A stretch of 64,000 bases of DNA from Acidobacteriota bacterium (GTDB lineage: Bacteria > Acidobacteriota > JAAYUB01). The stretch is taken from positions 14,286 to 78,285 of the forward strand of contig JAGNHB010000018.1 in NCBI GenBank assembly GCA_018001935.1, in the 5' to 3' direction. Positions 2,725 through 64,000 of the stretch are shown piece by piece (the stretch's first letter is position 1; the number at the start of each line of letters is the position of its first letter). Both the position numbers and the translations under genes were made by a program. The notes below the pieces were generated by a model. The model did not search any database, was not told the DNA's origin, and saw only the letters and a list, made by a program, of their open reading frames with translations.

Positions 2725-3807
2725 TCAGGGTTGGACCGGGGGAAGGTTCATCGCCTGCAGCACGGCACCGAGCGGGGCGAGCTCGAACAGTCCCCCGATG
2801 TCGTCGGGACCGTACCCCGGCGGCAGGTAACCCAGGTCCCGGGCCCGGGCCGCCGACTCCCTCATGGAGGCGACCCCCGGGTCCCAGGTCAGCTTCATGC
2901 GGGAAAACGCCTCCGACAGGATTTCCCGGGACAGGGGTTTCTGCATGACGGCCTCGAGGCCGGCCCGGATGACGTCCACCGCTTCCGCCGGGTGGTCCAG
3001 GGACCACCGGGTGGTCTCCACGTGGGCTTCGACGAACTTTCGGACCACGTCGGGGCGCTGCCGGACCCAGTCCTCCCGGACCACCAGGACCGCGGTGGTG
3101 AACCGGCCCCCGGGCCACAGGGAAGTCTCGTCGATCAGGATCTCCCCCCCCGCCTCCCGGCACAGGCGGGTGGCCCAGGGCTCGGGGACCCACGCGGCGT
3201 CCAGGCTCCCCTGGCGGAAGAGCATGAGGATCTCGGGGTTCTTCACCGGCTTGACCTTGACGTCCGTCCCCGGGGTGAACCCCTGCTGCTTCAGCCAGGC
3301 CCTCAGGGTGATGTCCTGGGTGTTGCCCAGTTCCGGCGAGGCCACGGTGCGCCCCTTCAGGTCGGCCGGGGCACGGAGGCCCAGTTCCCTGCGGACCACC
3401 AGCGAGGCCCCGCCCGAGGTGGCGCCGGCGACGATGCGCAGGGCGCCCTTGCCGGCGCGGAGGTAGGCGTTGATGGCGGGGTTGGGGCCGACGTAGGCGA
3501 TGTCGATCTCGCCGGCCAGGAGCGCCTCCATCTCCGTCGGGCCGGCGTTGAAGACCTTGTAGGCCACCGGCAGGCCCGTCTTCGCCTCGAAGGTCCCCTT
3601 GGCGCGTCCGATGATGGCCTGGGCGTGGGTGATGTTGGCGAAGTAGCCGACACGGAGGGTCCCCGAGGCGACGCCGTCCTTTCGACCGCAGGCGGCGCCG
3701 GCGAGCAGGAGGGCGACCACGGCGGGGACCGCGGCGAGGGATCGAAGGCCGGCGGCGCGCCGACGCGGTGCCGGGAGAAGACACAACGGGCTGAAATTAA
3801 AGGTCAT
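2725..3807 (-). CDS. ABC substrate-binding lipoprotein, aliphatic sulfonate/NitT-TauT family (SsuA-like)
   Basis: signal peptide with lipobox LLAGAACG; periplasmic binding protein fold typical of SsuA/TauA. Confidence 0.8.
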   Translation of the reverse strand: MTFNFSPLCLLPAPRRRAAGLRSLAAVPAVVALLLAGAACGRKDGVASGTLRVGYFANITHAQAIIGRAKGTFEAKTGLPVAYKVFNAGPTEMEALLAGEIDIAYVGPNPAINAYLRAGKGALRIVAGATSGGASLVVRRELGLRAPADLKGRTVASPELGNTQDITLRAWLKQQGFTPGTDVKVKPVKNPEILMLFRQGSLDAAWVPEPWATRLCREAGGEILIDETSLWPGGRFTTAVLVVREDWVRQRPDVVRKFVEAHVETTRWSLDHPAEAVDVIRAGLEAVMQKPLSREILSEAFSRMKLTWDPGVASMRESAARARDLGYLPPGYGPDDIGGLFELAPLGAVLQAMNLPPVQP

Positions 3808-3936
3808 GCTTGTCCTCTTTGAATCCGGAGACCGATTGACCGATCACTCTAGCAGGAACCCCCGGCCGCCGTCAACCCTCAATCCGGGGACGTCAAGGTT
3901 GGGGAGGGAGGGCGGGAACCCCTCTGCCGAGGGGTT

Positions 3937-6843
<2,907 letters not shown>

Positions 6844-6860
<17 letters not shown>

Positions 6861-15437: not shown

Positions 15438-15480
15438 CGTCCCCAGCCGGGGACGGAGCGATCTGTTTTTCCGGGGCAGT
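15438..15480 (+). terminator. rho-independent terminator-like hairpin
   Basis: gctccgtcccc-agcc-ggggacggagc perfect 11-bp stem followed by gatctgttttt. Confidence 0.6.
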
Positions 15481-15660
15481 CAGAGCCGCGCGCGTAAGCA
15501 AGCGGCCATTTCTCCCTCAGAGCCGCGCGCGTAAGCAAGCGGCCATTTTCCCCTCAGAGCCGCGCGCGTGAGCAAGCGGCCATTTTACCTTCGTAAGCAA
15601 GCGTAAGAATTTCCATGATTTACCGCTCCCTAACGGTCGCGGCTCTGACTGTTTCCCGGA
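15470..15660. repeat. three tandem copies of an approximately 42-bp unit (cagagccgcgcgcgtaagcaagcggccatttt...) closed by an inverted arm (ggtcgcggctctg)
   Basis: read directly; the unit core GCCGCGCGCGTAAGCAAGCGG also occurs at 37012 and 52911. Confidence 0.8.
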
Positions 15661-20299: not shown

Positions 20300-20400
20300 G
20301 GGAGGGTGCCCGACACGGAAATGGAACCACGAAATACACGGAAGACACGAAAGGGAAAAGAACCACGAACCACACCAACCACACGAACCGCCTCCGCGGT
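20300..20400. repeat. CACGAAC/ACCACACGAAC short tandem repeat block
   Basis: ggaaccacgaaatacacggaagacacgaaagggaaaagaaccacgaaccacaccaaccacacgaacc; related blocks at 46560-46640 and 63240-63300. Confidence 0.7.
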
Positions 20401-20619: not shown

Positions 20620-20680
20620 GCAGCCGCTGAAGCGCCTACCAGCCTTCAGCCTAACAGCCTTCAGCCTATCTCGCCTCCCC
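20620..20680. repeat. CCTTCAGCCTAACAG heptamer-pair repeat overlapping the stop of the 20666 gene
   Basis: cgcctaccagccttcagcctaacagccttcagcctatctcgcc; the TAG stop is inside cagcctatc. Confidence 0.8.
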
Positions 20681-21496: not shown

Positions 21497-21556
21497 CCCA
21501 CGCCTCCCCACCCGTCGGCGGACCTTGCCTTGATGTCGTCTCTCATCATAGCACAT

Positions 21557-21572
21557 CCGTATTCTGCGGTTC
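21557..21572. repeat. solo copy of the CCGCAGAATACG inverted-repeat motif overlapping the stop of the 21571 gene
   Basis: ccgtattctgcggttcagtg is the reverse complement of the motif flanking the GxxExxY gene. Confidence 0.6.
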
Positions 21573-23403
21573 AGTGAAGGATGGCGGCCAGGTCGGCGGC
21601 GGTGACGCGGCCGTCGCCGTCGGCGTCGCCGCCGGAGCCGCCGGGGGGCAGGTCGGGGACGTTCCCGGCCAGGAAGGCGGACAGAAGGACGAGGTCGGCG
21701 GCCGTGCGCCGGCCGTCGCCGTCCACGTCCCCGGGGTGGGGTTGCGACACCCGCAGGCGGGACGGGCGGGCCGCGTCCTGGTAGACGGTGTTTACGGCCG
21801 GCCACGCGGGCCCCGCGACGTACAGGGGCCCGCCGTCGTTGCGGTTCAGATCGAAGTGCGGGTAGTCGGCGGAGCAGACCGCGATCCGCAGGCGGTGACC
21901 CGGCAGGACCGTCAGCGCCAGGTCCTGGAGCGTCACCTCCACCTCGTAAACCGCGCCCGGCGCCATCAGGTGCTCCGCCGTGAAGCCGTCCCGGAAGCGC
22001 AGGCGCCGGATCCCCTGGGCCAGGATGATCGACCGCCCGTCGGGGTGGACATCGGTGAGCCGGACGCAGAGGTCGGTGTCCGTCCGGTCGGAGGAGAAGA
22101 ACAGGCCGGCTTTCACGCTGCCGTTGATCCGGAGGGGGACGGCCAGGGACGGCGTCGACCAGGTTCGCACGTCCGGCCGGCTCTCCACCGGTCCCAGGTC
22201 CTGGGGGCCCACCGGGAGGTCCGGGGCGAAGGGGTCGAATCGGGACCCGCCCAGGGCCGGGGTCGGGTCGGCGGGGTCGTAGGTGAAACGCTCCGGGGCG
22301 CCGTCCGACGGCGGGGGCGACCCGGTCAGCGTCCCGCCGGGTTGGAGGTAGAGGGCCGTCTCCACCCGCGCACGGTCGGACCAGCTCTCGCCGGCGACCC
22401 AGGCGTCGGCCCCCACCTGGTAGAAGGTGACGGGCGGCTCCGCGACCCACCCGTTGGCGACGTTCCGCAAATGGTAGTCCCAGAAGCGCACGGTTTTCGC
22501 CTCCGCCACGCCGGCGGCTGCGGGGAAGGTCAGAATTCCCTGCTCCGCCCGGTCCACCTCCCCGTGGAGCCAGGGGCCGAAGAGGAGGCGGTGCTGTTCC
22601 CGGGCCGGCGCCGCGCTGCCTTCCCGGAGGTCGCGGAAGCAGCGGAGGACGTCGTCGGGGAAGTGGTCGAACCAGCCGCCGATGACGTAGCAGGGGACGG
22701 CGATCTCCGCCGCCATGTCGGAATTGGCTTCCATGAGCGCCCAGAAGGCGTCCCGCATCGGGTGGGCGAGGATGAAGCCGGCGTCCGTCAGGCCGAGCTT
22801 TTCCAGGCTCTCCACGTGCTCTTTCCGGTAGTCGCCGCCGAAGTAGTAATCGGAGTACTTGAACAGGAAATCCTTGACCCGCGGGACGCAGCAGACCAGG
22901 TGGGGCGGGCGGTGCCGGGCGGTCTGGAACTGGATGTAGCCCAGGGCGGAGGAGCCCCAGGTCCCCACGCGGCCGTCGCACCAGGGTTGGGCGGCGACCC
23001 ACTCCACGGCGTCGTAGCCGTCAAGCCCGCGGTCGTAGCCGGGGACGGCGGCGGCCGAGGACCCGTAGAAGCCCCGCCAGTCCAGCACCACGTAGTGGTA
23101 GTCCGCCGAGAGGGGGAACATCCCGCCGCTCTGGGGCGGAAAACCCGCCATGGCCCGGTAGAAGTTCTTGTTGTAGGGCGTTTGGATCAGGATCACCGGC
23201 CGGGGGACGGGGGTGGCCCCGTCGAAGGTGTGGACGTCCGCCGCCAGGGCCTTCCCGTCCCGGGTGGGAATGGACACGGCGGTCCAGGTGAGCCCGCGCG
23301 GGGAGGAGGGCCCCGCGCCGGCGCCCGTCCCGGCCGGCAGCGCCCCGCCGGCGACGCACAGGGAAAACAGCAGCACCCGGGTGAAGCGGTGTCGCGATAA
23401 CAA
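21571..23403 (-). CDS. CocE/NonD family (S15 X-Pro dipeptidyl-peptidase-like) hydrolase with C-terminal dockerin
   Basis: VILIQTPYNKN and GRVGTWGSSALGYIQ; C-terminal DVDGDGRRTAADLVLLSAFLAGN plus DADGDGRVTAADLAAIL dockerin repeats; TTG start at 23403 with GGGAGG RBS and signal peptide. Confidence 0.75.
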   Translation of the reverse strand: MLSRHRFTRVLLFSLCVAGGALPAGTGAGAGPSSPRGLTWTAVSIPTRDGKALAADVHTFDGATPVPRPVILIQTPYNKNFYRAMAGFPPQSGGMFPLSADYHYVVLDWRGFYGSSAAAVPGYDRGLDGYDAVEWVAAQPWCDGRVGTWGSSALGYIQFQTARHRPPHLVCCVPRVKDFLFKYSDYYFGGDYRKEHVESLEKLGLTDAGFILAHPMRDAFWALMEANSDMAAEIAVPCYVIGGWFDHFPDDVLRCFRDLREGSAAPAREQHRLLFGPWLHGEVDRAEQGILTFPAAAGVAEAKTVRFWDYHLRNVANGWVAEPPVTFYQVGADAWVAGESWSDRARVETALYLQPGGTLTGSPPPSDGAPERFTYDPADPTPALGGSRFDPFAPDLPVGPQDLGPVESRPDVRTWSTPSLAVPLRINGSVKAGLFFSSDRTDTDLCVRLTDVHPDGRSIILAQGIRRLRFRDGFTAEHLMAPGAVYEVEVTLQDLALTVLPGHRLRIAVCSADYPHFDLNRNDGGPLYVAGPAWPAVNTVYQDAARPSRLRVSQPHPGDVDGDGRRTAADLVLLSAFLAGNVPDLPPGGSGGDADGDGRVTAADLAAILH

Positions 23404-23540
23404 GGCAGGCCTCCCGTCTCGAAAAAACCGGTGGGGATTGCACAGACGCACGTGCCCCCTCGCAGCGTTCAACCTTCGAGGCCCGGAAAGGTTCCAGATG
23501 TTTTTCGCCAACGCCAAATGCCGTTGCCGGCTGGTCGGAG

Positions 23541-23672
23541 GAAAAGGACAAAAGGACCAAAAGGACATAAAGGACGGCACGGAGGGCAAACGGGTTACCC
23601 TGCGGACGCCCCTGCCCCCACCTGCTGTTATGAAGTCCTTTAAGTCCTTTAAGTCCTTCAAGTCCTTCCCGG
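23541..23672. repeat. inverted pair of AAAGGAC heptamer arrays with an approximately 56-nt loop
   Basis: ggaaaaggacaaaaggaccaaaaggacataaaggacgg ... gtcctttaagtcctttaagtcctttaagtccttcaagtcc. Confidence 0.85.
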
Positions 23673-23766
23673 GCGAAACGGTCCCGTGGGGGGAAGGCGG
23701 GAAAGCCACCGGCCTGGCCGCGTCGCGGCTGCAGGAACAGAAGCCGCCCCCCTCCCTCGGCCGCCG

Positions 23767-23845
23767 CCCCGATCGCCGCCGCCCATCGTCGCCCCCCGAT
23801 CGCCGCCGCCCATCGTCGCCCCCCCCGATCGCCGCCGCCCGCTGA
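23767..23845. repeat. three tandem copies of an approximately 28-bp unit CCCGATCGCCGCCGCCCATCGTCGCCCC
   Basis: read directly in the 5' region of the 23915 gene. Confidence 0.85.
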
Positions 23846-23914
23846 AAATGTTTGGCCGGTCCGGCGTTTTGTACTATCATGACTTGGAAAATTCGACGGT
23901 TGCGGGGAACGGCC

Positions 23915-26143
23915 ATGAGCAAATCGTACAGGCATGTCGGGCAGTCGGTGAGGCGGGGTGACGTGGAGGCCAAGATCCGGGGGACGGCCGGCTTCGGCGT
24001 GGACATCACCCCGCCGGGCTGCCTGTGGGGACGGGTCGTCCGGGCGAATGCGCCGCACGGGCGGATGAAGAAAATCGCCTTCGACCCCGCCTTCGACTGG
24101 GCCGGGTTCACCCGGCTGACGGCGGACGACGTCCCGGGGAAGAAAATCCTCCCTTACTTCCTCCAGGACCAGCCCTTCCTGGCGTTCGACACGGTGAAGT
24201 TCCCGGGCGACCCCGTGGCGCTGCTGGCCCACGAGGACCCGGACGCCCTGGAGAGGGCCCTGTCCCATGTCCACGTCGAGGTGGAGCCGCTCCCCGCCGC
24301 CTTCACCATCGAGGACTCCCTGGCGCTCGAGGCCGCCCTCTGGGAGGGGGACAACGTCTTCTGGGAGGTCCTCATCTCCAAGGGCGACCCGGGGCCGGTC
24401 CTGACGGGGCCGGGCGTCACCGTCTTCGACGAGGTCTACGAGACCGGGTCCCAGGAGCAGCTCTACCTCGAACCCCAGAACGTCATCGCCTTCAACGAGG
24501 ACGGGCGGATCCGCATCCTGGGGAGCATCCAGTGCCCCTACTACGTGAAACCCGGCGTGGAGGCCGCGCTGGGCGAACCCGTGGACGTGGAGCAGTCCAC
24601 CACCGGCGGCGCCTTCGGCGGCAAGGAGGACTACCCCACGCTCCTGGCGGCGTGGGCGGCCATGCTGGCGAAGAAGTCGGGGCGGACCGTGAAGATGGTT
24701 TTCGACCGGGACGAGGACTTCGCCTACACCACCAAGCGGCACCCCTCCCGGACCCGCGTCCGCTCCGCCGTGGGGCCGGACGGGAAGCTCCTGGCCATGG
24801 ACATCGACTTTGCCCTGGACGCCGGCGCCTACTGCACCCTCTCGCCGGTGGTCCTCTCGCGCGGCGCCCTCCACGCGGGGAGCGCCTACCTCTGCCCGAA
24901 CCTGCGCATCCTGGGGCGGGCGGTGGCCACCAACACCCCGCCCACGGGCGCGTTCCGCGGGTTCGGCGCCCCCCAGGGCCTCTTCGCCGTGGAGCGCCAC
25001 ATGGACGTCATGGCCCACCGCCTGGGCCGCGACCCCTTGGAATTCCGGCGCCTGAACCTGTTGCGCAACGGCGACACCAACGCCACCGGGCAGCTCTTCC
25101 GGTGGGAGAAGAACCTCCACGGCGTCCTGGACCGCGCCCTCGAGCTTTCCCGCTTCGAGGAGACCCGAAAGGCCGCGGAGGAGAACAACCGCTCCGACGC
25201 GTGGCGCAAGCGAGGTGTGGGCCTTTCCCTGTTCTTCCACGGGAGCGGGTTCACCGGCAGCGGCGAGACCAAGATGCGGAGCGTTGCCCGGCTGGAGGCG
25301 GACCCGGAAGGGTTCGTCGTCATCCGCGTGTCCAGCGTGGAGATGGGGCAGGGGGCCCGGACGGTCCTGGCCCAGATGGTGGCCGAGACCATGGGGATCG
25401 GCCTCGACCAGGTCCGCTACCCCAACCCCGACACGGCCCGGGTCCCCAACACGGGCCCCACGGTGGCGTCGCGCACCACGGCCGTGGTGGGCGGCATCCT
25501 GGTGAAGGCCGCGGAGGCCCTCCGCCGGCGCATCGAGGACGTCACGGGGCGTGTCTGGGAGGACGGCGAGGGCTTTGCCCGGACCCTTCGGGCGGTCCCG
25601 TACGGCATCGTGCCCCTGGCGGAGGACGCGGTCTACGAGCCGCCGCCGGGGCTGGTCTGGGACGAGGAGACCTTCCGCGGCGAGGCCTACGCCGACTACG
25701 CCTGGGCCTGCTACGTGGCCGAGGTGGAGGCGGACCTGCGGGACTACACCGTGACGGTGAAAACCTTCACCGCCGTCCAGGACGTGGGCACCGTCATCCA
25801 CCCCGAGCTGGCCCGCGGGCAGGTGGAAGGGGGCGTGGTGCAGGGGATCGGCTGGACGCTCACCGAGAAGGTCCACTTCAAGGACGGCCGGGTCCTCAAC
25901 CCCGGGTTCTCCGACTACATCATCCTGACCCCCGCGGACCTTCCCGAACTCCGGGTGGACTTCGTCCAGAACCCGTCCCCTCACGGGGGGTATGGGGCCA
26001 AAGGGCTCGGCGAACTCCCCATGGACGGCCCGGCGCCGGCCATCCTGGCCGCCCTGCACCAGGCCCTGGGCCGGGAGTTCAACCGCATCCCCCTGACCCC
26101 GTCCGACCTGTTCCGGGAGCTGGAGACGGACGGAAAATCGTGA
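23915..26143 (+). CDS. xanthine dehydrogenase / aldehyde oxidase family molybdopterin-binding subunit (CoxL-like)
   Basis: a/b hammerhead and MoCo-binding domains (GFGGKED, TLSPVVLSRGALHAGSAY, AFRGFGAPQG, GQGARTVLAQMVAE); no FAD or Fe-S subunit adjacent. Confidence 0.85.
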   Translation: MSKSYRHVGQSVRRGDVEAKIRGTAGFGVDITPPGCLWGRVVRANAPHGRMKKIAFDPAFDWAGFTRLTADDVPGKKILPYFLQDQPFLAFDTVKFPGDPVALLAHEDPDALERALSHVHVEVEPLPAAFTIEDSLALEAALWEGDNVFWEVLISKGDPGPVLTGPGVTVFDEVYETGSQEQLYLEPQNVIAFNEDGRIRILGSIQCPYYVKPGVEAALGEPVDVEQSTTGGAFGGKEDYPTLLAAWAAMLAKKSGRTVKMVFDRDEDFAYTTKRHPSRTRVRSAVGPDGKLLAMDIDFALDAGAYCTLSPVVLSRGALHAGSAYLCPNLRILGRAVATNTPPTGAFRGFGAPQGLFAVERHMDVMAHRLGRDPLEFRRLNLLRNGDTNATGQLFRWEKNLHGVLDRALELSRFEETRKAAEENNRSDAWRKRGVGLSLFFHGSGFTGSGETKMRSVARLEADPEGFVVIRVSSVEMGQGARTVLAQMVAETMGIGLDQVRYPNPDTARVPNTGPTVASRTTAVVGGILVKAAEALRRRIEDVTGRVWEDGEGFARTLRAVPYGIVPLAEDAVYEPPPGLVWDEETFRGEAYADYAWACYVAEVEADLRDYTVTVKTFTAVQDVGTVIHPELARGQVEGGVVQGIGWTLTEKVHFKDGRVLNPGFSDYIILTPADLPELRVDFVQNPSPHGGYGAKGLGELPMDGPAPAILAALHQALGREFNRIPLTPSDLFRELETDGKS

Positions 26144-26241: not shown

Positions 26242-26475
26242 ATGGTTCAAGCACTGAAGGAAAAAACGACGGTTCAGGCCGGAGGAACCATTCATCTTGA
26301 AATCCCGGGGCTTACTCCGGGAACACCCGTTGAAGTCGTCGTTTATATCGAAAGCAATTCAACCCCGAAGAAAAACTCTCTTGCAAACAGGGTCGGATCC
26401 GCCAAGGGAGGGTTTTATTCACCCGAAGCGGTTGACGGGTTTCTGTCACAGGAGCGCGGTGCGTGGGAAGATTGA
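26242..26475 (+). CDS. vapB: type II antitoxin VapB-like
   Basis: small ORF MVQALKEKTTVQAGGTIHLEIPGL... immediately upstream of and overlapping a PIN gene. Confidence 0.7.
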   Translation: MVQALKEKTTVQAGGTIHLEIPGLTPGTPVEVVVYIESNSTPKKNSLANRVGSAKGGFYSPEAVDGFLSQERGAWED

Positions 26476-26900
26476 GCGAGTTCTTCGGGAAAAAGATCTA
26501 TCTCGATACAAACGTATTGATCTATGCACTCGAAGGGTTCCCGGATTATTCCGGAGTTCTGACGGCTCTGTTCCAGGCGGTCGATCAGGAGCTTTTGAGG
26601 GCTTTCACCAGCGAGTTGACCATTGCGGAAGTGTTGGTGAAGCCATTCATTGATCGAAACCGGGAGAGGGAACATGCCTATCTGGAACTCTTTGACGGTT
26701 CCGGGCCCCTTCACGTCGAACCGGTTACCCGCAGCATCCTGATCGAGGCCGCCCGATTGCGGGCTTTGCACCCCCTTCGCCTTCCGGATGAAATTCACCT
26801 GGCAACCGCTTTTTTTTCAGAGTGTTCTTTCTTTATCACCAATGATTTCCGCATCAACCCCGTCTCCGGTCTGGATGTCATCCGTTTAAGCGAACTGTAA
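26463..26900 (+). CDS. vapC: PIN-domain toxin VapC
   Basis: KIYLDTNVLIYAL with conserved acidic residues, ITNDF; GTG start overlaps the vapB stop; locally lower GC. Confidence 0.8.
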   Translation: MGRLSEFFGKKIYLDTNVLIYALEGFPDYSGVLTALFQAVDQELLRAFTSELTIAEVLVKPFIDRNREREHAYLELFDGSGPLHVEPVTRSILIEAARLRALHPLRLPDEIHLATAFFSECSFFITNDFRINPVSGLDVIRLSEL

Positions 26901-31639: not shown

Positions 31640-31815
31640 AGAGGAGGGATGGGAATAGTGGGAGTTATGGGAATTCTGGGAGTTGTCAAGATGTGGGAGG
31701 AAAGGGGAGAGAAAGGGGCAAGAAGAGGCAAGAACCCCCCAGGCTCCCGCAATTGCCACGAATCCCATAATTCCCATAACTCCCATCATTCCCATCATTC
31801 CCATTCTCCCCTCAC
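31640..31815. repeat. inverted pair of 9-nt tandem arrays (GGGAATGAT/GGGAGTTAT versus CCCATAATT/CCCATCATT) between the ATPase and permease genes
   Basis: gggaatagtgggagttatgggaattctgggagttg ... cccataattcccataactcccatcattcccatcattccc. Confidence 0.85.
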
Positions 31816-32539: not shown

Positions 32540-32925
32540 CTCCACTCGGAGCTGTTTTTCGATGGGCATGGGATGTTTATCGGAGTCGGAAAAGGACGAA
32601 AGGACCAAAAGGACCAAAAGGACCAAAGGGACGGCAAGAACCGAAAAACATGAAAGATATGAAAGACATGAAAGACATGATCCCCAACCTCCAGCCCTGG
32701 CCTTCCGCCTTGTGTCTGCAACATCTTTCCGCCTCGTGTCTCCGACAAGCCTTCCGCCTCGTGTCTCCCGCAAACCTTCCGCCTGTTTCCCTTGCGATGC
32801 CGATTGCGATGCCGATTGCGACTGCGATTGCGACTGCGATTGCGATACCGATACCGATACCGATTCCGACCCCGATGGGAAGATCCCCGGACCTTCAGCC
32901 TAACAGCCTTCAGCCTAACAGCCTA
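32540..32925. repeat. composite repeat element: AAAGGAC x5, ATGAAAGAC x3, approximately 21-nt CCTTCCGCCTCGTGTCTCC x3-4, GATKGCGA/GATACC hexamer array, CCGATGGGAAGATCCCCGGACC linker, TTCAGCCTAACAGCC x2
   Basis: read directly; fills the whole 390-bp spacer between macA and the ATPase gene; the macA TAG stop lies in the terminal cagcctac. Confidence 0.9.
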
Positions 32926-34176: not shown

Positions 34177-34339
34177 GTCTCACCCCCGCACGTCTCAATA
34201 CGCAGATCCCGTGCCAAAAACCGGGCATCGACCCCCTCTCTCGGCCGCCGTCAAATTCCGGGTTCAGACCGCCTCCGCCACCCGAAGTTCTCTAAATGTG
34301 AAAAACGTGAAGTTTAGACAATCGATCCCGCCTTCTGCG

Positions 34340-34389
34340 CCTTCTGTGTATTCTGCGGTCCCAGGCCGCGGAATACGCAGAACATACGG
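34340..34389. repeat. closely spaced inverted pair of the GCAGAATACGCAGAACA motif (hairpin, no ORF between)
   Basis: ccttctgtgtattctgcggtccc-agg-ccgcggaatacgcagaacatacgg. Confidence 0.7.
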
Positions 34390-34662
34390 AAAGCGATTCG
34401 CCTGCGAACGGGGACTCCGCCGGAAGGGGTGTCCGGTTCCGGGACGGGCTGTCCCGAAAGCGGACACTTTCTGGGGGCCCTCCCGCAAACTCTTCGATTT
34501 TCGGGGCCGTCTCCGGGTATAATAGGCCCGTAGGATCGATCGAAAAGGGGGGGAATGCCCGGGGGCCGGGCCGTTCAAGGTTTGGAACCGCCCCGGGTCG
34601 TGGGGCGGGCGGTCCTGGATCGCCCGGTTGCCCGTGTCCACCCCCTCGGGTCAGGATGGTTT

Positions 34663-36834: not shown

Positions 36835-37011
36835 CGGCCCGGGCGGCGAGGGGTGCGGGCCCGGCCGGCTGGCCCCGGCGACGTAAACCGGGACGGGGGC
36901 CGGGAGGGGTCCGGGCGATTTTTCGGGAATCGGGGCAGGGCGTGAATCCCTGACCGGTCACCGGCCGTATCTGTAAAACGGGGTGGCGGTTGGGCCGACG
37001 GGAAACCCGTC

Positions 37012-37080
37012 AGCGCCGCGCGCGTAGGCAAGCGGTTGAAGATTTTGCAGTTGCCACCATTTCTCGGTCGCGGCTCCGTT
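37012..37080. promoter_or_regulatory. copy of the GCCGCGCGCGTA(A/G)GCAAGCGGTT(G/A)AAG motif with downstream inverted arm GGTCGCGGCTC
   Basis: cagcgccgcgcgcgtaggcaagcggttgaag ... tctcggtcgcggctccg; compare 52911-52940 and the 15470-15600 tandem copies. Confidence 0.5.
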
Positions 37081-41513: not shown

Positions 41514-41628
41514 GAACAGCCGCACAAAACCCGAAAAAAAACTCGGAATTTCTTCCGCAGAAACGTTGATATAGGAGGGAGTGATTGCCCTGAGGTCATG
41601 ATTCTTCCCGTCGGCGATGATCTGTTCT

Positions 41629-41655
41629 GAACCGCAGAATACGCAGAACACGCAG
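41629..41655 (+). repeat. left inverted repeat GAACCGCAGAATACGCAGAACACGCAG flanking the GxxExxY gene
   Basis: about 21/27 identity to the reverse complement of 42328-42354. Confidence 0.7.
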
Positions 41656-41806
41656 ATGTAGAAGTGTAGCGATTATAGGGTTTGAGGATGGAAAGAGGTG
41701 ATGCCAGAGATGAGAAGAGAATTCGTGAAGGGGGTGGAAGAGATTTGAAAGATGTGGGAAGTGGGCCGGAGGAGGGTGTGAAAAGAACTTGAGGAAGAGG
41801 AGGTGG

Positions 41807-42262
41807 ATGATGGGGGTCAGGCAGAGTGCTTCCGATTCGGACGGTTTTCCTTTGAAAGACGAGGGATACGCAATCCTGGGTGCCGTGTTTGAAGTGTACA
41901 AGGTGATGGGGTGTGGTTTCCTTGAGGCTGTTTACCAGGAGTGCCTCGAGTACGAGTTCGAAGACCGGGGAATTCCCTTCGAGGCGAACCCGAACCTCAC
42001 CATCGATTTCAAGAAGCGACGCTTGAAGAGGAAATATCAACCTGATTTTCTGTGTTTCAGCCAGATTGTGGTGGAACTCAAAGCGGTCTCGGCGCTGATT
42101 CCCGAGTATCGTGCCCAGCTTCACAATTACTTGAAAGTTTCCGGCATGACCGTCGGTTACCTTGTCAATTTCGGGCATTTCCCCCTTGTGGAATACGAAC
42201 GCATCATCCGGACCGACCCGGAGAAGGGACGCCAAAACGGGAGCACGAACGGGGAACCGTGA
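41807..42262 (+). CDS. GxxExxY family protein (PD-(D/E)XK nuclease superfamily)
   Basis: LKDEGYAILGAVFEVYKVMGCGFLEAVYQECLEYEF...QPDFLC...IVVELKAV; strong GAGGAGG RBS; AT-richer flanks. Confidence 0.75.
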   Translation: MMGVRQSASDSDGFPLKDEGYAILGAVFEVYKVMGCGFLEAVYQECLEYEFEDRGIPFEANPNLTIDFKKRRLKRKYQPDFLCFSQIVVELKAVSALIPEYRAQLHNYLKVSGMTVGYLVNFGHFPLVEYERIIRTDPEKGRQNGSTNGEP

Positions 42263-42327
42263 TGGCCTTCCGATGACACCATCTCCGTCTCTCAGATAGA
42301 CCGAAAAAATAGATAATATAACTCTTT

Positions 42328-42354
42328 CTGCTTATTCTGCGTATTCTGTGGTTC
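42328..42354 (-). repeat. right inverted repeat (reverse complement GAACCACAGAATACGCAGAATAAGCAG) flanking the GxxExxY gene
   Basis: ctgcttattctgcgtattctgtggttc; overlaps the stop codon of the sensor kinase gene. Confidence 0.7.
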
Positions 42355-43774
42355 ACTCAGGATTGGGCGGGGGGGGAGGTGCTGGGGCGGGGAGGGCGGG
42401 GATGCGGACCCGGAACACCGCCCCCTGGCCCGGCTCGCTCTCCACTTCCACGCTCCCCCGGTGCAGCTCCACCAGGTCCTTGACGATGGAGAGCCCCAGG
42501 CCCGTGGAGTGCTCGCCGCCCGTCGGCCGGGCGCTGAGGCGCTGGAATCGCCCGAAGACCCGCTCCCGGTCGCCCTCCGACAGGCCGGGCCCCCGGTCGT
42601 GGACCTCGAAGCGGACTTCCCCGTTCTCCCGGCACAGCCGCAGGAAAATCACCCCCCCCGGCGGCGAGAACTTGACGGCGTTGCTCACCAGGTTGTCCAT
42701 GACCTGCTGGAGGCGCAGCCGGTCCCCCCGCACGCGACACCCCTCCCCGGGCTCCAGCACGAGGGTCTGCCCCTTTCGCGCCGCCAGCGGCCGGTTGAGG
42801 CTGACCACCGACTCCGCCAGCGGCCCCAGGAGCAGTTCCTCCTCCACCAGCTGGAGGCGGCCGGTGTCGATGACCACGGTGTCCAGCAGCTCGTTGATGA
42901 GGGTCACCATCTTCTCGGAGGCGCTGATGATCATCTCCAGCTGTTCGATCCCCTTCCGGTCTTCCTTGATCCGCCGCCGGAGAAGTTTCGAGAACCCGGT
43001 CACGACCTGGAGCGGGTTCTTCAGGTCGTGGGCGGCGACGGCGAGGATGGAACTCTTGAGGTCGTTCACCTGCCGAAGTTCCTCGTTGGTCCGCCGCAGC
43101 TCGTCGGCCGTGGTCTCCAGGCTCCGGTTGGCCTCCATGAGCTTCAGCTGCACCCGTTGGAGCTGGATGTTGCTCAGGTGGATGGTCTGCTGGGCGACGA
43201 AGTTGTCGCGGCGGGCCCGTTCGAGGAGAACGGCCGCCACGACGGCGATGAGCGTCGCCTCGGCGAAGTTGAACAGCCCGTAGAGCCGCTGGGGGGTGTC
43301 GAAGCGCATCCCCCGGCACAGGCCAAGGGCGGCGAAGAGGGCGATGGAAAGGGCGATCAGCCACAGGGAATTCTTGCGGCCCAGGGGCGCCATGGGGAGG
43401 ATCAGCAGGATGATGCTGAAGCCGCCGAGGTACACGGGGTCGCCGCCCACCAGCCCGAGGATGGCGCCGGCCGAGAGGTTCAGGTAGGCGAAGAGGGCCA
43501 GGAGGAGGACGTGGCTGTTCTCGCGGACCCGGGGGAGGGCCAGCAGGGCGAGGACGCCGGCCCCGACGACGGTGAGGCCGAGCCTCAGGGCGGTCACGAG
43601 GTCGTTGCCGGGGAAGAGATGGCGGTCCACCAGGAGGAAGGGGATCCAGGCCGCCAGGGAGGCCAGGGCGGCGGGCAGCACCAGGGGCCGGCTCAGGCGC
43701 TCCAGGTCCATCCCGAAGGCGTAGTCGCCGAACAGTTCCTCGTGCCCCGCGAGGTCGGGCGCGTCGTCGTGCAT
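42353..43774 (-). CDS. membrane sensor histidine kinase (orphan, no cognate regulator adjacent)
   Basis: 6 TM helices, coiled coil, HisKA AHDLKNPL, HATPase_c N/G boxes (HDRGPGLS, GLGLSIV); ATG at 43774 with GGAGG RBS. Confidence 0.8.
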   Translation of the reverse strand: MHDDAPDLAGHEELFGDYAFGMDLERLSRPLVLPAALASLAAWIPFLLVDRHLFPGNDLVTALRLGLTVVGAGVLALLALPRVRENSHVLLLALFAYLNLSAGAILGLVGGDPVYLGGFSIILLILPMAPLGRKNSLWLIALSIALFAALGLCRGMRFDTPQRLYGLFNFAEATLIAVVAAVLLERARRDNFVAQQTIHLSNIQLQRVQLKLMEANRSLETTADELRRTNEELRQVNDLKSSILAVAAHDLKNPLQVVTGFSKLLRRRIKEDRKGIEQLEMIISASEKMVTLINELLDTVVIDTGRLQLVEEELLLGPLAESVVSLNRPLAARKGQTLVLEPGEGCRVRGDRLRLQQVMDNLVSNAVKFSPPGGVIFLRLCRENGEVRFEVHDRGPGLSEGDRERVFGRFQRLSARPTGGEHSTGLGLSIVKDLVELHRGSVEVESEPGQGAVFRVRIPALPAPAPPPPPNPE

Positions 43775-43949
43775 GACCGGGATTTCCTCCCCGTGGGCGG
43801 CCGCGATCCCGGATTTCACGCCGGGCGGCTCCCGGCGGCCGCGCCTGTCCGAATTGTACCCCAGAGTCGAGGGCTTGTTCAACCGGTCTGAAAAGCCCGC
43901 AACGTTGACCGTTCCTGCGCTCGTGCCGCCTCCCTGGCGATTCGTTTTC

Positions 43950-44300
43950 CTTCGCGATCTTGGCGCCTTGGCGAGAGCCGACCCGGATCTTGATCTCGTA
44001 AAGGCGCAAAGATCGCAAAGGAAGACTGCAAAAGGAAGGGAGAAGATCGAGGGTTGCGGGCTGTAGTCGACAAGGGGGCCGCCGATCCCGGTCGCGAGCG
44101 CGTCCCCGGTCGAGTGCGACAGCGCGTGCGAGTGCGGCTGCGACAGCGCATGCGATTGCGATTGCGATTGCGATTGCGACGGCGATTGCGACGGCGATTG
44201 CGATACCGATAGCGATTGCGATACCGACCCCGATACCGATACCGACCTCGATGGGAACCCCTCCGGACCTACAGCCTACAGCCTATAGCCTACAGCCTAA
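43950..44300. repeat. composite repeat element: GCAAAG block, long GCGAYWGCGA/GATACC hexamer array, CTCGATGGGAACCCCTCCGGACC linker, CCTACAG x4
   Basis: read directly; lies immediately downstream of the 44312 gene. Confidence 0.9.
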
Positions 44301-46559: not shown

Positions 46560-47030
46560 AAACCAAGAACCACACGAAACAGCGACCACGAAACACTTGA
46601 AAACGGAACCGCAAACCGCACGAAAGAGAACCGCCCCTTGTTTGTCGGGAAGGCGGACCGAATTCCCGCGAAGAAACAGGACAGGCCGGAAATCAACCGC
46701 TCGAGGGCGTTCTGGTTTTCCGGGAAAGGACGAAAGGACTTAAAGGACCAAAACGACCCAAAGGACAGGGTGGGCGGCCACTTTTTCTCCGCGGTCCGGT
46801 TCGGGGATCCCGCACCGTGATCCGTTTCTTCTCATCGCTCCCCTTCATCCCCTTCATCCCCTTCATCCCATTCATCCCATTCATCCCATTTATCCCATTT
46901 ATCCCATTCATCCCATCATTCCCATTCTCCCCACTCTCTGCTTTCTTCTCTCTTTTTCTTTGCTTTCTTTGCTCTCTTTGCTTTCTTTGCGGTTTCTGCT
47001 CTCTTTGTGGCTTCCCCCGGTTTCGCGCCC
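46560..47030. repeat. composite repeat region: CACGAAC block, AAAGGAC x5, CCCATTCAT 9-mer x10, CTTTGCTTT array
   Basis: read directly. Confidence 0.9.
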
Positions 47031-51499: not shown

Positions 51500-51830
51500 T
51501 GTCACCGGCGGTTTCGAGGCGAAAGGACGAAAGGACCAAAAGGACCCAAAGGACCAAAAGGACCGCGACAAGCCGGTGCCGGATGCAACGAGACCGTAAC
51601 CGGCATTGCCATCGCTGTGGGTATCGCTGTCGCCGTCGTCGCTGTCGCCGTCGTCGCAGCCTCCGATCCCGTCTCCCTCATCGTCAGCCCCTGGCCGTCC
51701 TTTGCGTCCCTTTGGTCCCTTTGGTCCTTTCGTCCTTTGATTCCGACCTCGATCCCGATTGCGACAGCGACCCCGATCCCAACCCCGATGGAAAATCCGA
51801 AAAGAACCGGTGTACGTCCCGAAACATAGG
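51500..51830. repeat. composite repeat element: AAAGGAC array, GC-rich hexamer block, inverted GTCCTTT array, GATYCCGA hexamers, CCCCGATGGAAAATCCG linker
   Basis: read directly upstream of the AAA+ gene. Confidence 0.85.
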
Positions 51831-52115
51831 GCGAATCCGCCGGGATGTCAACGCGAAAACGGGTCGTAACCCATTCCGGACAGGGGAGGTCGGAACCACG
51901 GACCACACGCAAGAGAAAGGTTGTTCTGCCTGTTCTCTGTCCGTGAAGTTTTGCCGAGGCACGAGTGAGGATTATCCTAATTTGTGGCTCGAAATACGGT
52001 GGGCATCGCGATACAATGAATCTTGAAGAAAAATGGGGAGGATGTTCGGGCTGCGAAACAAAGAGGGACCACTTTCTTTCGGTCGGAGAAGTTTGAACCG
52101 CACGAGGTGAAGTTC

Positions 52116-52415
52116 ATGTTGGAGATTGACAAGATCAAACCAGAGATCGCCGCCCTCTGCAAGCGCTTGTATGTCAGGCGCCTGGAACTTTTCGGCTCGG
52201 CGGTTACGAAGGAGTTCGGTCCGGGGAGCGATGTGGACTTTCTTGTCGAATTCGACCGGGGAAAGGGGGATCTCTTCAACTGGTTTTTTGAGTTGAAAGA
52301 GGAGCTGGAGAGACTGGTATCAAGGCCGGTGGATGTCATCGTCACAGACGCGATCCGGGATTCTTTCTTCAGGAAAGTGATAGAGCAAACCCGGACGTTG
52401 CTGTATGCCGCTTGA
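52116..52415 (+). CDS. minimal nucleotidyltransferase (MNT) antitoxin
   Basis: LELFGSAVTKEFGPGSDVDFLVEF nucleotidyltransferase-fold motif (GS...DxD); ORF may begin at 52023. Confidence 0.7.
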   Translation: MLEIDKIKPEIAALCKRLYVRRLELFGSAVTKEFGPGSDVDFLVEFDRGKGDLFNWFFELKEELERLVSRPVDVIVTDAIRDSFFRKVIEQTRTLLYAA

Positions 52416-52617
52416 GATCAAGAAAACTCTTTTTGACATCGTGGCTCCCTCTTTGTTTTCAAGGATTACAAACGCCCAGCGGATTGCAGGCTTCCGCAAT
52501 ATTATCGCCCACGGATACGATGCGGTCGATGAAGCCATTGTCTGGGAGGCGGCTACCGTCCACTTGCCAATTCTGAAGGCGGAAATCGAGCACTGGATGG
52601 AGGCTGACGAGAGGTGA
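52405..52617 (+). CDS. HepT-like (DUF86) toxin, apparently short or N-terminally truncated
   Basis: Rx4HxY motif RNIIAHGYD; only 70 codons versus about 115-140 typical. Confidence 0.5.
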   Translation: MPLEIKKTLFDIVAPSLFSRITNAQRIAGFRNIIAHGYDAVDEAIVWEAATVHLPILKAEIEHWMEADER

Positions 52618-52865: not shown

Positions 52866-52910
52866 GACGTTCGCCGCGGGGGCGGCCATCCGGCAGGTCG
52901 GAAACCAGCC

Positions 52911-52940
52911 GAAGCCGCGCGCGTAAGCAAGCGGTTAAAG
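52911..52940 (+). promoter_or_regulatory. copy of the GCCGCGCGCGTAAGCAAGCGGTTAAAG motif, 30-60 nt upstream of the 52970 start
   Basis: about 26/30 identity with 37012-37042. Confidence 0.45.
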
Positions 52941-52969
52941 ATCTGTTATTTACCACTTGGAGGTGCGTA

Positions 52970-54494: not shown

Positions 54495-54650
54495 GGCGGC
54501 GATCCCGATTGCGACAGCGATCCCGATTACGACAGCGAGAGCGATTGCGATACCGATACCGATACCGATGGGAACCCCTCCGGACCTACAGCCTACAGCC
54601 TTCAGCCTTCAGCCTTCAGCCTAAACCCCTTCAGCCTATCCCCTACCTTC
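54495..54650. repeat. composite repeat element: GATCCCGATTGCGACAGC hexamer array, CCGATGGGAACCCCTCCGGACC linker, CCTACAG/CCTTCAG heptamers
   Basis: read directly; the giant gene's TAG stop lies in the terminal ccctacc. Confidence 0.9.
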
Positions 54651-63239: not shown

Positions 63240-63300
63240 CCCGGATAAACCGGAATGGAACCACGAACCACACGAACCACACGAAAAAGATCGGACAGGA
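63240..63300. repeat. CACGAAC-type short tandem repeat block
   Basis: ggaatggaaccacgaaccacacgaaccacacgaaaaag. Confidence 0.7.
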
Positions 63301-63438: not shown

Positions 63439-64000
63439 CTACATTCTCCGCCAACGGGCGTTACGTCCCATGCCGAGGCATTCCAGTTGGCCGGCCGCTT
63501 TGCGGGCTTTGATCGTCCTCCGGATCAAATCGATACTCACTTCCGGGCAGGCGCGCCGAACGTCCCCCACGCTGAACTCACCCATGACTTGCTGGAGAAA
63601 ACGATCAACCCTCTCGGTCTTCTCCCCCCGCAGCGAATCGAATGATCCGACTCTTTCGATGAACTCGTCGTAGGCCTTTTTCAAGATGAACAACAGGTAG
63701 CCGATGTAGGGCCAGGGATCGTGATTTCCCTCATGCCACCCTTGGGAGCTCTCTTTCAAGGTCTCGTAATACCTCTCCTTGTTTTCTTCGATCAAGCGTT
63801 CGAGGCTGATGTAGCGGCCTACTTCGATCCCCAGATGGTAACAGGTCAAAAGTAACAGCAGGCGGGAGACCCGGCCATTTCCGTCCCGAAAGGGGTGAAT
63901 GCAGAGGAAGTCCAGGTTGAGCGCGGCGATGAGAACAACGGGGGCAATGGCGTGTTCCTTGATTTCTTCCTCCCACAGCGCGAACGCGGACTGCAGGTAA
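63439..64000 (-). CDS. Fic/Doc family protein, C-terminal part (5' end beyond the window)
   Basis: Fic motif IHPFRDGNGRVSRLLLLL in the reverse-strand translation near 63880-63930; C-terminal winged-helix-like tail. Confidence 0.8.
   Translation of the reverse strand, partial: YLQSAFALWEEEIKEHAIAPVVLIAALNLDFLCIHPFRDGNGRVSRLLLLLTCYHLGIEVGRYISLERLIEENKERYYETLKESSQGWHEGNHDPWPYIGYLLFILKKAYDEFIERVGSFDSLRGEKTERVDRFLQQVMGEFSVGDVRRACPEVSIDLIRRTIKARKAAGQLECLGMGRNARWRRM

Follow-up and report, generated by a model that had tools for sequence, protein, structure and literature searches.

A 64,000-nucleotide stretch of contig JAGNHB010000018.1 from an Acidobacteriota bacterium (assembly GCA_018001935.1, positions 14,286 to 78,285; hereafter the window) carries at 41.6-42.4 kb a gene of the GxxExxY (PDDEXK_3) family, with a PD-(D/E)XK nuclease fold, set between two inverted arms. 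We are confident that this arrangement belongs to a conserved class, in which a nuclease gene and two arms of three 9-bp units behave as an insertion/deletion unit. Taken further, the window feature would be a copy of a conserved cross-phylum cassette that is read unit by unit, following a logic like that of repetitive extragenic palindromic (REP) doublets (REPINs) and their REP-associated tyrosine transposases (RAYTs), or of miniature inverted-repeat transposable elements (MITEs); to this interpretation we give about an even chance of being right.

Architecture of the cassette in the window

Inverted repeats had been described around the GxxExxY open reading frame (ORF), and the repeat finder recovered them as arms at 41628-41656 and 42327-42355, each reaching one base further at both ends than described, 29 nt long, 90% complementary and 670 nt apart. 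Each arm begins with TGAACC and continues with three tandem 9-mers of the form CGCAGAAYA, the period of 9 being returned by Tandem Repeats Finder (TRF). The left arm (41628-41656, plus strand, ->) reads TGAACC followed by the units CGCAGAATA, CGCAGAACA and CGCAGA; the right arm (42327-42355, minus strand, <-) reads, as its reverse complement, TGAACC, ACAGAATA, CGCAGAATA and AGCAGA. What had been described as a 27-bp terminal inverted repeat is therefore a genuine pair of inverted arms, but one made of three 9-bp units, of which an old lineage (the Kiritimatiellia loci described below) conserves the periodic cores only. Within each arm the 9-mers are repeated directly, without forming a palindrome, and the arms do not have the form of REP hairpins. 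A 17-mer core occurs six times in the window at ≤3 mismatches, against 0.10 occurrences expected, and none of 100 shuffles reached six; four of the occurrences lie within the two cassette arms and two form a pair at 34342-34382.

Between the arms lie a 150-nt leader (41657-41806, plus strand), purine-rich and poor in C, with a GGAGG ribosome-binding site at its end; the GxxExxY/PDDEXK_3 gene itself (41810-42262, plus strand; 150 aa, with alternative starts at 41807, giving 151 aa, and at 41789); and an AT-rich spacer of 64 nt from the stop codon to the right arm (42263-42326, plus strand). GC skew is 0.385 across 41601-42000. The leader is unusually long compared with the 0-15 nt of most relatives, and the closest relative, L126 (related loci are designated by L numbers), has one that resembles it; with its long leader and its 3' spacer, the window copy is an atypical cassette member. 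Several features first noted for this locus were borne out: the strong ribosome-binding site is the GGAGG box preceding the start codon, the AT-richness shows as an island (41601-42400) with a GC content of 0.52 against about 0.70 in the surroundings, and the right repeat overlaps a kinase stop codon, as its terminal TGA (42353-42355, minus strand) ends the convergent histidine-kinase gene 42353-43882(-). The cassette has a sensor-kinase gene on either side, and one of the two takes its stop codon from the cassette.

A terminator scan found no intrinsic terminator at either arm, no T-run follows the arms, and they stand 670 nt from each other. Rfam gave no match in the window at the gathering threshold, and none at E ≤ 1 for the cassette and six related loci; neither rRNA nor any other Rfam family was found in the window, where the cassette lies between protein-coding genes. 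A tblastn search of the window for further GxxExxY remnants returned nothing significant.

The encoded GxxExxY protein

The cassette ORF matched PF13366 (PDDEXK_3; E = 1.9e-37, 128.6 bits against a cut-off of 22) and TIGR04256 (GxxExxY; E = 8.9e-38, 129.2 bits against a cut-off of 35). These are its sole Pfam and NCBIfam matches, and the HUH/Y1 (IS200/IS605-like) domain of a RAYT is not among them. The motifs are intact (G36-F-L-E39-A-V-Y42, and the catalytic P78-D79 ... E89-L-K91); across 39 homologues G36, E39, P78, D79, E89 and K91 never vary, and Y42 is kept in at least 90%. The predicted structure, with a predicted local distance difference test score (pLDDT) of 86, has a restriction-endonuclease-like fold with Cas4/RecB-like structural neighbours. 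The protein is 100% identical to one from an Acidobacteria metagenome-assembled genome (MAG), annotated at 41810-42262 (150 aa), and an exact-protein look-up otherwise returned just 1-1.3-kb Logan contigs of the same locus. No sequence relative was found in the PDB and no match in PADLOC, and PHROGs gave a marginal endonuclease match only.

The family is large, comprising 10,457 clusters at 50% identity with E ≤ 1e-3. A superfamily survey from 2012 lists the function of PDDEXK_3 as 'Unknown', and its phylogeny indicates multiple transfers between divisions (PMC3424549). No description of the flanks of GxxExxY genes was found in the open-access literature, Rfam or PADLOC, a scope within which absence cannot be proved. 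As an anecdotal observation, a few database proteins contain read-through tripeptide repeats (MTTEYTEYTE, PQNTQNTQN).

Arms around GxxExxY genes in other bacteria

Relatives 43-66% identical to the window protein were collected from metagenomes as 33 loci, 31 of them testable. When the 300-nt flanks were compared, the top-scoring ungapped inverted repeat reached ≥13 at 23 of the 31 loci, against 3 of 132 control positions on the same contigs, and in an independent test the same 5-mer recurred at 8-10-nt spacing, inverted, in both flanks at 23/31 loci but at only 2/168 controls; by eye, both arms were present in 28 of the 31 and at least one arm in 32 of the 33. The proposed check on whether other GxxExxY genes are flanked likewise came out in favour, with arms recurring around relatives in other phyla. 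More distant homologues (33-46% identical) are also armed, in Bacteroides finegoldii with CACCACAGAGGACGCAGAGGACACGGAG, in Bernardetia with ACACAGAGA units and in Treponema with one unit; a Gemmatirosa homologue has no visible flanking arms and a CGCGGATNN pair just downstream of the gene. Flanking arrays were detected by the periodic 5-mer test in none of 22 distant viral or giant-virus PDDEXK_3 homologues (L177-L216 from IMG/VR, 24-37% identity). The arms are specific to bacterial GxxExxY genes, from Acidobacteria to Bacteroidota. On a separate note, L175, a 'viral' contig with 48-50% identity, passes the periodic 5-mer test; L174 and L176 fail it, and the inverted-repeat scan finds arms there with scores of 16 and 21.

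The usual cassette is compact, one arm leading directly into the ribosome-binding site or start codon and the second following 2-15 nt past the stop codon; in one lineage, start and stop codons lie inside the arms. Cassette size across relatives is about 0.45-0.73 kb. Unit cores vary by cassette (CACGGAA, CGCAGAA, CACGAAA, CGCGAAA, nCGAAT, CGCAGAT, CACAGAG), the core type clustering by protein clade across hosts whose GC content ranges from 0.32 to 0.70. The usual geometry, -> ORF <-, was seen in about 35 loci; at L144 the outer ends of the arms point toward the ORF, and at L089 a whole palindrome stands on either side of the gene. The L144 region (3700-4560) is low in GC and holds, further out, two copies of an unrelated palindromic repeat of ~130 nt (TATGGAACAATGCAT...ATGCATTGTTCCATA). 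At L151 (3600-3770) and L152 (1030-1190) several tandem duplications of the left arm follow one another at a period of 48 nt.

A scan of DNA with the pattern CCRCRGAATACRCAGAA, covering one representative genome per GTDB species (596 Gb), yielded at least 120 loci; by arithmetic estimate several hundred chance matches to this pattern are expected in 596 Gb, and many of the matches fall in coding DNA. A large share of those listed have the form (T)TAA-CCACGGAATACACGGAATACACGGAA, often with an inverse array 5-100 nt further on, and their hosts are mainly Verrucomicrobiota, Kiritimatiellae, Lentisphaerae/Victivallales, Planctomycetes, Acidobacteria, Chloroflexi and Bacteroidota. Over the same matches the arm leader follows T-N-A-A-C (T in 103/181 at -4, A in 120/181 at -2 and A in 129/181 at -1). 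Wide pairs enclosing a recognisable gene always enclosed GxxExxY among the matches listed (L022, L026 and L058), and tight pairs without an ORF comprised at least 34 convergent and at least 7 divergent examples; inverted arrays lacking an ORF are thus common, and they occur across phyla. Such pairs can be decayed cassettes, because the loop of one of them (L100, among the same matches) retains a C-terminal GxxExxY remnant. Nested palindromes were found at two loci of one Victivallales MAG: L033 (3110-3360) has three layers, each of a different 9-mer family, GCAGACTGC... outside CAGAATACG... outside CGAATTTNN..., and L044 (1720-1990) has the same outer layer with a CACGGAATA-type layer within.

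Conserved part of the arms

Compared across loci, the general arm is T-N-A-A-C followed by about three tandem 9-bp units, of which a 5-6-nt core, RCRRA[W], is the conserved part. The Kiritimatiellia arms display this most clearly, with CGAA(T) invariant at a 9-nt period and the 3-4 nt between the cores varying freely. When the comparison was restricted to the two inner units (the terminal unit is special and confounds a comparison of all units), the spacers of one arm matched those of the corresponding unit of the other arm in 15/44 cases and those of the non-corresponding unit in 19/44. In younger or other lineages the arms are near-perfect copies, and the mismatches between arms are not enriched in G.U over A.C (19 versus 14, plus 25 others). 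Both the minimum free energy (MFE) and the centroid folds predicted for the window mRNA pair the two arms, and RNAalifold pairs them in the Kiritimatiellia alignment, in which no covariation is present to test. Since the inner spacers are uncorrelated between the arms and G.U pairs are not enriched, the conserved object is the periodic unit rather than the duplex, a pattern that, judged from the alignments, would be expected of sites read by a protein.

Gain, loss and replacement of the cassette

In eight Kiritimatiellia loci the cassette has one and the same position, between a gene for a metallo-β-lactamase (MBL)-fold hydrolase and argS. The sites scored as occupied are L131, L133, L135-L140, L146 and L147, and those scored as empty are L171/L172 and L173. 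In the latter genomes, whose arginyl-tRNA synthetases (ArgRS) are ~80% identical, the order ParA-MBL-argS is kept and the place holds just a spacer of 31 or 54 nt with no ORF and no arrays. Comparison of related genomes had been put forward as a check, and the syntenic L173 and L171 sites answer it with a presence/absence difference, which is also the pattern looked for in homing-endonuclease genes at orthologous sites. The empty-site genomes fall outside the cassette-bearing cluster in the ArgRS identity matrix, which fits a single gain. Relatives with ArgRS 74-78% identical (L167, L169, L170) have a different upstream gene and were unusable as empty sites, and in more distant ArgRS relatives synteny is lost. 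The Kiritimatiellia cassette gene has a ratio of nonsynonymous to synonymous substitution rates (dN/dS) of 0.02-0.15, with dS running from 0.2 to saturation; the combination of saturated dS and low dN/dS implies that selection has preserved the gene while it was passed on vertically over a long time.

The window's own site offers a second comparison. In a sister genome (L158-L160), whose kinase is 89% identical, the spacer at this site measures 365 nt against 839 nt in the window. Automatic pairwise alignment was uninformative beyond the first ~95 nt, and the remnant was found by translating the spacer: at L158 3620-4050 there are a divergent array pair, the ~40 terminal codons from a GxxExxY gene that belongs to another subtype (ending ...LGLMLNFNVIKLKDGIRRLVNHFVD*) and a right arm. 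The sister cassette is truncated at its 5' side, and all of its units read CGCAAGG where those of the window read CGCAGAA. The next kinase relative, L161 (68% identical), has lost synteny and was set aside. Because the empty syntenic sites lack ORF and arrays alike, and because the sister genome holds a different cassette, gene and arms form one unit of gain, loss and replacement, and close relatives may hold different cassettes at one site. The cassette termini, TNAACC/GGTTNA, belong to the inverted repeat. No transposase apart from the nuclease was seen, GxxExxY being the only ORF of the cassette. Of the miniature mobile cassette first proposed, the joint gain, loss and replacement of gene and arms is thus retained, while no target-site duplication, no other transposase and a vertically inherited gene under strong purifying selection speak against a simple transposon.

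Related arrays and other repeats in the window

Arrays comparable to the cassette arms occur elsewhere in the window. A divergent pair of CGCAGAAYA-type units without an ORF occupies 34329-34390, as found by the core search with its orientation read from the sequence, in the divergent promoter region between an HlyD-family gene and a Ser/Thr kinase-FGE gene. By reading, 34329-34360 is right-arm-like (<-) and about 23/27 identical to the left arm once reverse-complemented, 34364-34390 is left-arm-like (->) and about 21/27 identical to it, and the outer ends abut, 4-6 nt apart, across CCAG. The inverted copies from which an empty site had been proposed here (34340-34389) are real, but their arm order, <- ->, is opposite to that of the cassette; the pair would be the ORF-less form of the rarer <- ORF -> geometry of L144 and L089. 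The solo copy noted at another gene's stop is also real: an incomplete arm of 1.5 units, TGAACCGCAGAATACGG, lies at 21555-21575 on the minus strand. Within it, the 16 nt of TGAACCGCAGAATACG (~21557-21572) are identical to those with which the left arm begins, and the TGA terminates the S15-peptidase/dockerin gene 21571-24111(-). An ORF-less array of RCRRA-type 9-mers (CACGAAATA, CACGGAAGA, CACGAACCA) at 20315-20391 (plus strand) is probably what remains of an arm from this superfamily, since similar units flank GxxExxY in L129 and L156.

A second CACGAACCA array of this superfamily, GGAACCACGAACCACACGAACCACACGAAA, is found at 63249-63290 (plus strand), with no adjoining GxxExxY ORF detected. 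Near it, a 136-aa ORF in a low-GC stretch (63439-63849, minus strand) has no Pfam hit and is weakly Fic-like (PADLOC SoFic, E = 6e-5; phrog_5978, E = 6e-7). Tandem 9-mers of AAAGGACNN in 4-5 copies occur at 23548-23671, 51527-51733, 32594-32634 and 46725-46766; two of these arrays are convergent inverted pairs with loops of 58 and 127 nt that enclose no ORF. Their first units, CGAAAGGAC, are near the CACGAAAGG arms of some GxxExxY cassettes, and the arrays may be relatives within the same superfamily. The 9-mers ATGGGAATT/TCCCATTCA form an inverted pair around a purine-rich loop (31649-31684 / 31763-31811) and, at 46839-46931, a one-sided array of 10 copies followed by TTTCTTTGC x4 (46955-46990); no associated gene was found for either. 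At 6663-6761, GTCAGACCT is repeated 11 times in tandem and is similar to the arms CAGACTGCA / GAAGACTGA that make up the outer layer of palindrome nesting at the Victivallales loci L033 and L044.

Other repeats differ in period. A composite of CGATNC hexamer arrays, then GGGAACCCCTCCGGAC, then CAGCCTA heptamers follows minus-strand stop codons at 6823-6852, 20634-20670, 32792-32925, 44111-44299 and 54499-54638, and occurs inverted at 826-1029; read on the gene strand, the heptamers become TAGGCTG, which places a stop codon in all frames. A 37-nt unit, TCAGAGCCGCGCGCGTAAGCAAGCGGCCATTT..., is present at 15480-15586, 37010-37046 and 52909-52945, as three tandem copies plus related single copies, the latter upstream of a large hybrid kinase and near 52.9 kb; within it CAGAGCCGCG ... 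CGCGGCTCTG could pair, and there was no Rfam match at the gathering threshold. The low-GC islands 26463-26900 and 52023-52617 are toxin-antitoxin genes (PIN-domain; MntA-like nucleotidyltransferase followed by a short HepT-like fragment), neither of them bracketed by 9-mer arms.

Discussion

The reading that we prefer for the cassette is the following. A gene for a GxxExxY PD-(D/E)XK nuclease of ~125-150 aa is bounded by two inverted arms, whose 9-bp units would be cis-acting recognition sites, each read singly by a protein. The reader would most likely be the encoded Cas4/RecB-like nuclease, as its co-occurrence and co-variation with the units suggest. With three sites at each end, in inverted orientation, the cassette would resemble a transposon with multi-site ends and might be inserted, excised or copied as a unit, the palindromes made of arrays only being non-autonomous or decayed derivatives. 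The element would be long-lived and largely vertical, turned over occasionally and leaving many ORF-less arrays behind. Transposition by the cassette is in this sense a proposal drawn from comparative sequence patterns.

Several observations weigh against this account. Long vertical persistence at fixed loci, to the point of saturated dS, argues against frequent movement, and no target-site duplication, that is, no direct repeat outside the arms, was seen in the 24 cassettes inspected, so the duplications that had been suggested as a check were not found. Plain co-inheritance would equally produce the co-occurrence and co-variation of the nuclease with the units. In many loci the complementarity of the arms is near-perfect, and in the predicted window mRNA they are paired, which makes a role at the RNA level possible. 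A second geometry, <- ORF ->, exists (L144, L089), and one simple end-recognition model does not cover both. At L147 (3940-4400), otherwise an orthologous Kiritimatiellia site, the left arm is of the CGAAA type and the right arm of the CGAAT type. Finally, the window holds many other ORF-less intergenic arrays of 9-, 7- and 6-nt units, and some process that generates or uses arrays may be independent of GxxExxY.

The RNA-level alternative deserves the fullest hearing, although we consider it unlikely. Base-pairing of the arms in the mRNA would enclose the ORF within a long-range stem, much as in 23S rRNA intervening sequences that bear an ORF, or as when hok mRNA folds back 5' on 3'. An RNase III-type enzyme would cleave this stem, or the stem would mask the ribosome-binding site; it would insulate a potentially toxic nuclease, expressed by read-through, from the host operon, and the arms would travel as part of the expression unit. 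The predicted pairing in the window and Kiritimatiellia folds agrees with this, as does the usual placement of cassettes, co-oriented between closely spaced genes with no promoter-like site. The inverted repeat reaches the Shine-Dalgarno region in some loci (GGAAAGG/CCTTTCC in L127, GGAAGG/CCTTCC in L142), start and stop codons lie inside the arms in others, outer-stem columns show A or G opposite U, and the intervening sequence of Coxiella is described as a 428-nt element with an ORF (PMC4990558). Against the stem, compensatory changes are never seen, the arm pairs being invariant; the arm mismatches lack the G.U enrichment that pairing would favour, and in the oldest lineage the spacers are non-complementary, leaving three helices of 5-7 bp only. 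Nor does a stem explain the fixed 9-nt period, the rule of three units, the <- ORF -> geometry or the abundance of ORF-less arrays, and no Rfam family matched. Two more specific RNA analogies were discarded: CsrA-like GGA sites or Hfq ARN repeats might be read into the CACGGAAUA type, but the core types CGAAT, GCAGATT and CACAGAG have no such motifs, and in comparison with the tandem RNA repeats that precede the endoribonuclease of type III toxin-antitoxin systems the units are only 9 nt long and are mirrored downstream. The strong purifying selection, the long inheritance at a fixed locus, the protein-binding-site-like conservation of the periodic cores and the lack of target-site duplications would also suit a resident host gene, in which the arrays are tandem operators on both sides of a domesticated nuclease, autoregulated through looping by itself or by a host regulator, with presence/absence due to ordinary gain and loss by recombination and ORF-less arrays, some with ORF remnants inside, as decayed relics. 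We regard this as quite improbable, given the nearly identical arms in distant phyla, the nesting of palindromes, the different cassette at the same site of the sister genome and the published PDDEXK_3 transfers noted above; ORF-less pairs also outnumber ORF-bearing ones by about 5 to 1 among the matches listed in the unbiased DNA scan.

Homing would account for the ORF always standing at the centre of symmetry in both geometries: the nuclease would cut ORF-less palindromes or cassette-free alleles, repair would place the ORF at the palindrome centre, and the arms would be target or homology. Palindromes without an ORF are known in either orientation, among them the window pair at 34329-34390, and the nested palindromes suggest insertion into palindrome centres; yet the two syntenic empty sites are free of any array, so that there the arms came with the ORF, and we hold homing to be very improbable. 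Least credible of all, to the point where we give them almost no weight, are chance similarity, ordinary intrinsic terminators and integron attC sites. Chance is excluded by the statistics (shuffles, inverted-repeat score and periodic 5-mer test). One palindrome could serve as a terminator, but there is no T-run and the terminator scan was empty at the arms. The arms end in AAC ... GTT like the R boxes of attC, and L089, with a complete palindrome on each side of the gene, looks like a cassette array; against this, the stems are by eye near-perfect 27-bp tandem 9-mers without the bulged two-box layout, and the usual layout is of half-sites around the ORF, not of a single 3' palindrome, L089 alone being palindrome-ORF-palindrome. 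A scan of ten neighbouring window genes, spread with gaps over about 21.5-49.3 kb, gave kinases, a transporter, a peptidase and similar proteins but no integrase.

Among the known systems close to the unit-read cassette that we favour are the REPIN-RAYT pairs. Both have a single small gene of nuclease or transposase type with inverted copies of a short repeat at its flanks; dispersed ORF-less inverted doublets may be a further parallel (within the 64-kb window, one doublet and one solo copy), and the mostly vertical, long-lasting cassette, its gene under selection, parallels the inheritance described for REPIN-RAYT systems in PMC3337134, PMC3116915 and bioRxiv 10.1101/2022.05.22.493013, likewise mostly vertical and long-lasting with the gene under selection. 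The cassette differs in that its protein is a Cas4/RecB-like PD-(D/E)XK and not an HUH/Y1 transposase, its arm is three tandem 9-bp units and not a self-palindromic REP, and its arms are nearly identical across phyla. Like autonomous insertion sequences (ISs) and their MITE pairs, it is a unit bounded by terminal inverted repeats, with presence/absence polymorphism and ORF-less derivatives, some with internal remnants; unlike them, it lacks a DDE or any other known transposase, shows no target-site duplication, measures about 0.45-0.73 kb as a whole, and carries a strongly purified gene that is syntenic over saturated dS. A companion family of small 'four-helix-bundle' genes, those of 23S rRNA intervening sequences (IVSs), is present in the same phyla. 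The cassette shares with these IVSs (Leptospira, Coxiella S23p) the form of a 0.4-0.7-kb insert with one small ORF and inverted-repeat bounds, and is set apart by its position outside rRNA, its different ORF family and its periodic 9-mer arms; ORF-bearing 23S rRNA IVSs are described as having at their ends inverted repeats that can pair into a long stem, and they are regarded as selfish (PMC4990558). With free-standing PD-(D/E)XK homing endonuclease genes it has in common a small nuclease gene between conserved genes that is absent in syntenic relatives, but it has repeat arms and ORF-less arrays, and neither an intron nor an intein is part of it. The ends of Mu and Tn7, and the heptad or octad operators of omega or MetJ, likewise consist of several short direct repeats that bind protein; the cassette is similar in its several direct units per end, inverted ends and unit-wise conservation, and differs from them in its 9-bp period and about three units.

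A conserved and simple cis-element beside almost every bacterial member gives a large orphan family a testable candidate substrate, defined to the base as three 9-bp units with a clade-specific core. Were the nuclease to read or move the arrays, a second protein chemistry would stand behind REPIN-like persistent repeats, independent of RAYTs, and a class of intergenic palindromes in several phyla would be explained; the natural co-variation of core and protein would then make available a 125-aa scaffold with a range of sequence specificities. Should the arms act in RNA instead, they would be an mRNA-level analogue of the ORF-bearing rRNA intervening sequences, new for protein-coding operons. 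In its broadest form, which we offer tentatively as a possibility that we would not yet back, the proposal is that GxxExxY nucleases and 9-bp arrays make up an unrecognised, cross-phylum class of nuclease-driven repeats, the PD-(D/E)XK counterpart of RAYT/REPIN, in which the nucleases of each clade would recognise a 5-6-nt core particular to them, set in a fixed 9-bp register and present as three units at either end, and which would give rise to a considerable fraction of short intergenic palindromes in Acidobacteria, the Planctomycetes-Verrucomicrobia-Chlamydiae (PVC) group and Bacteroidota.

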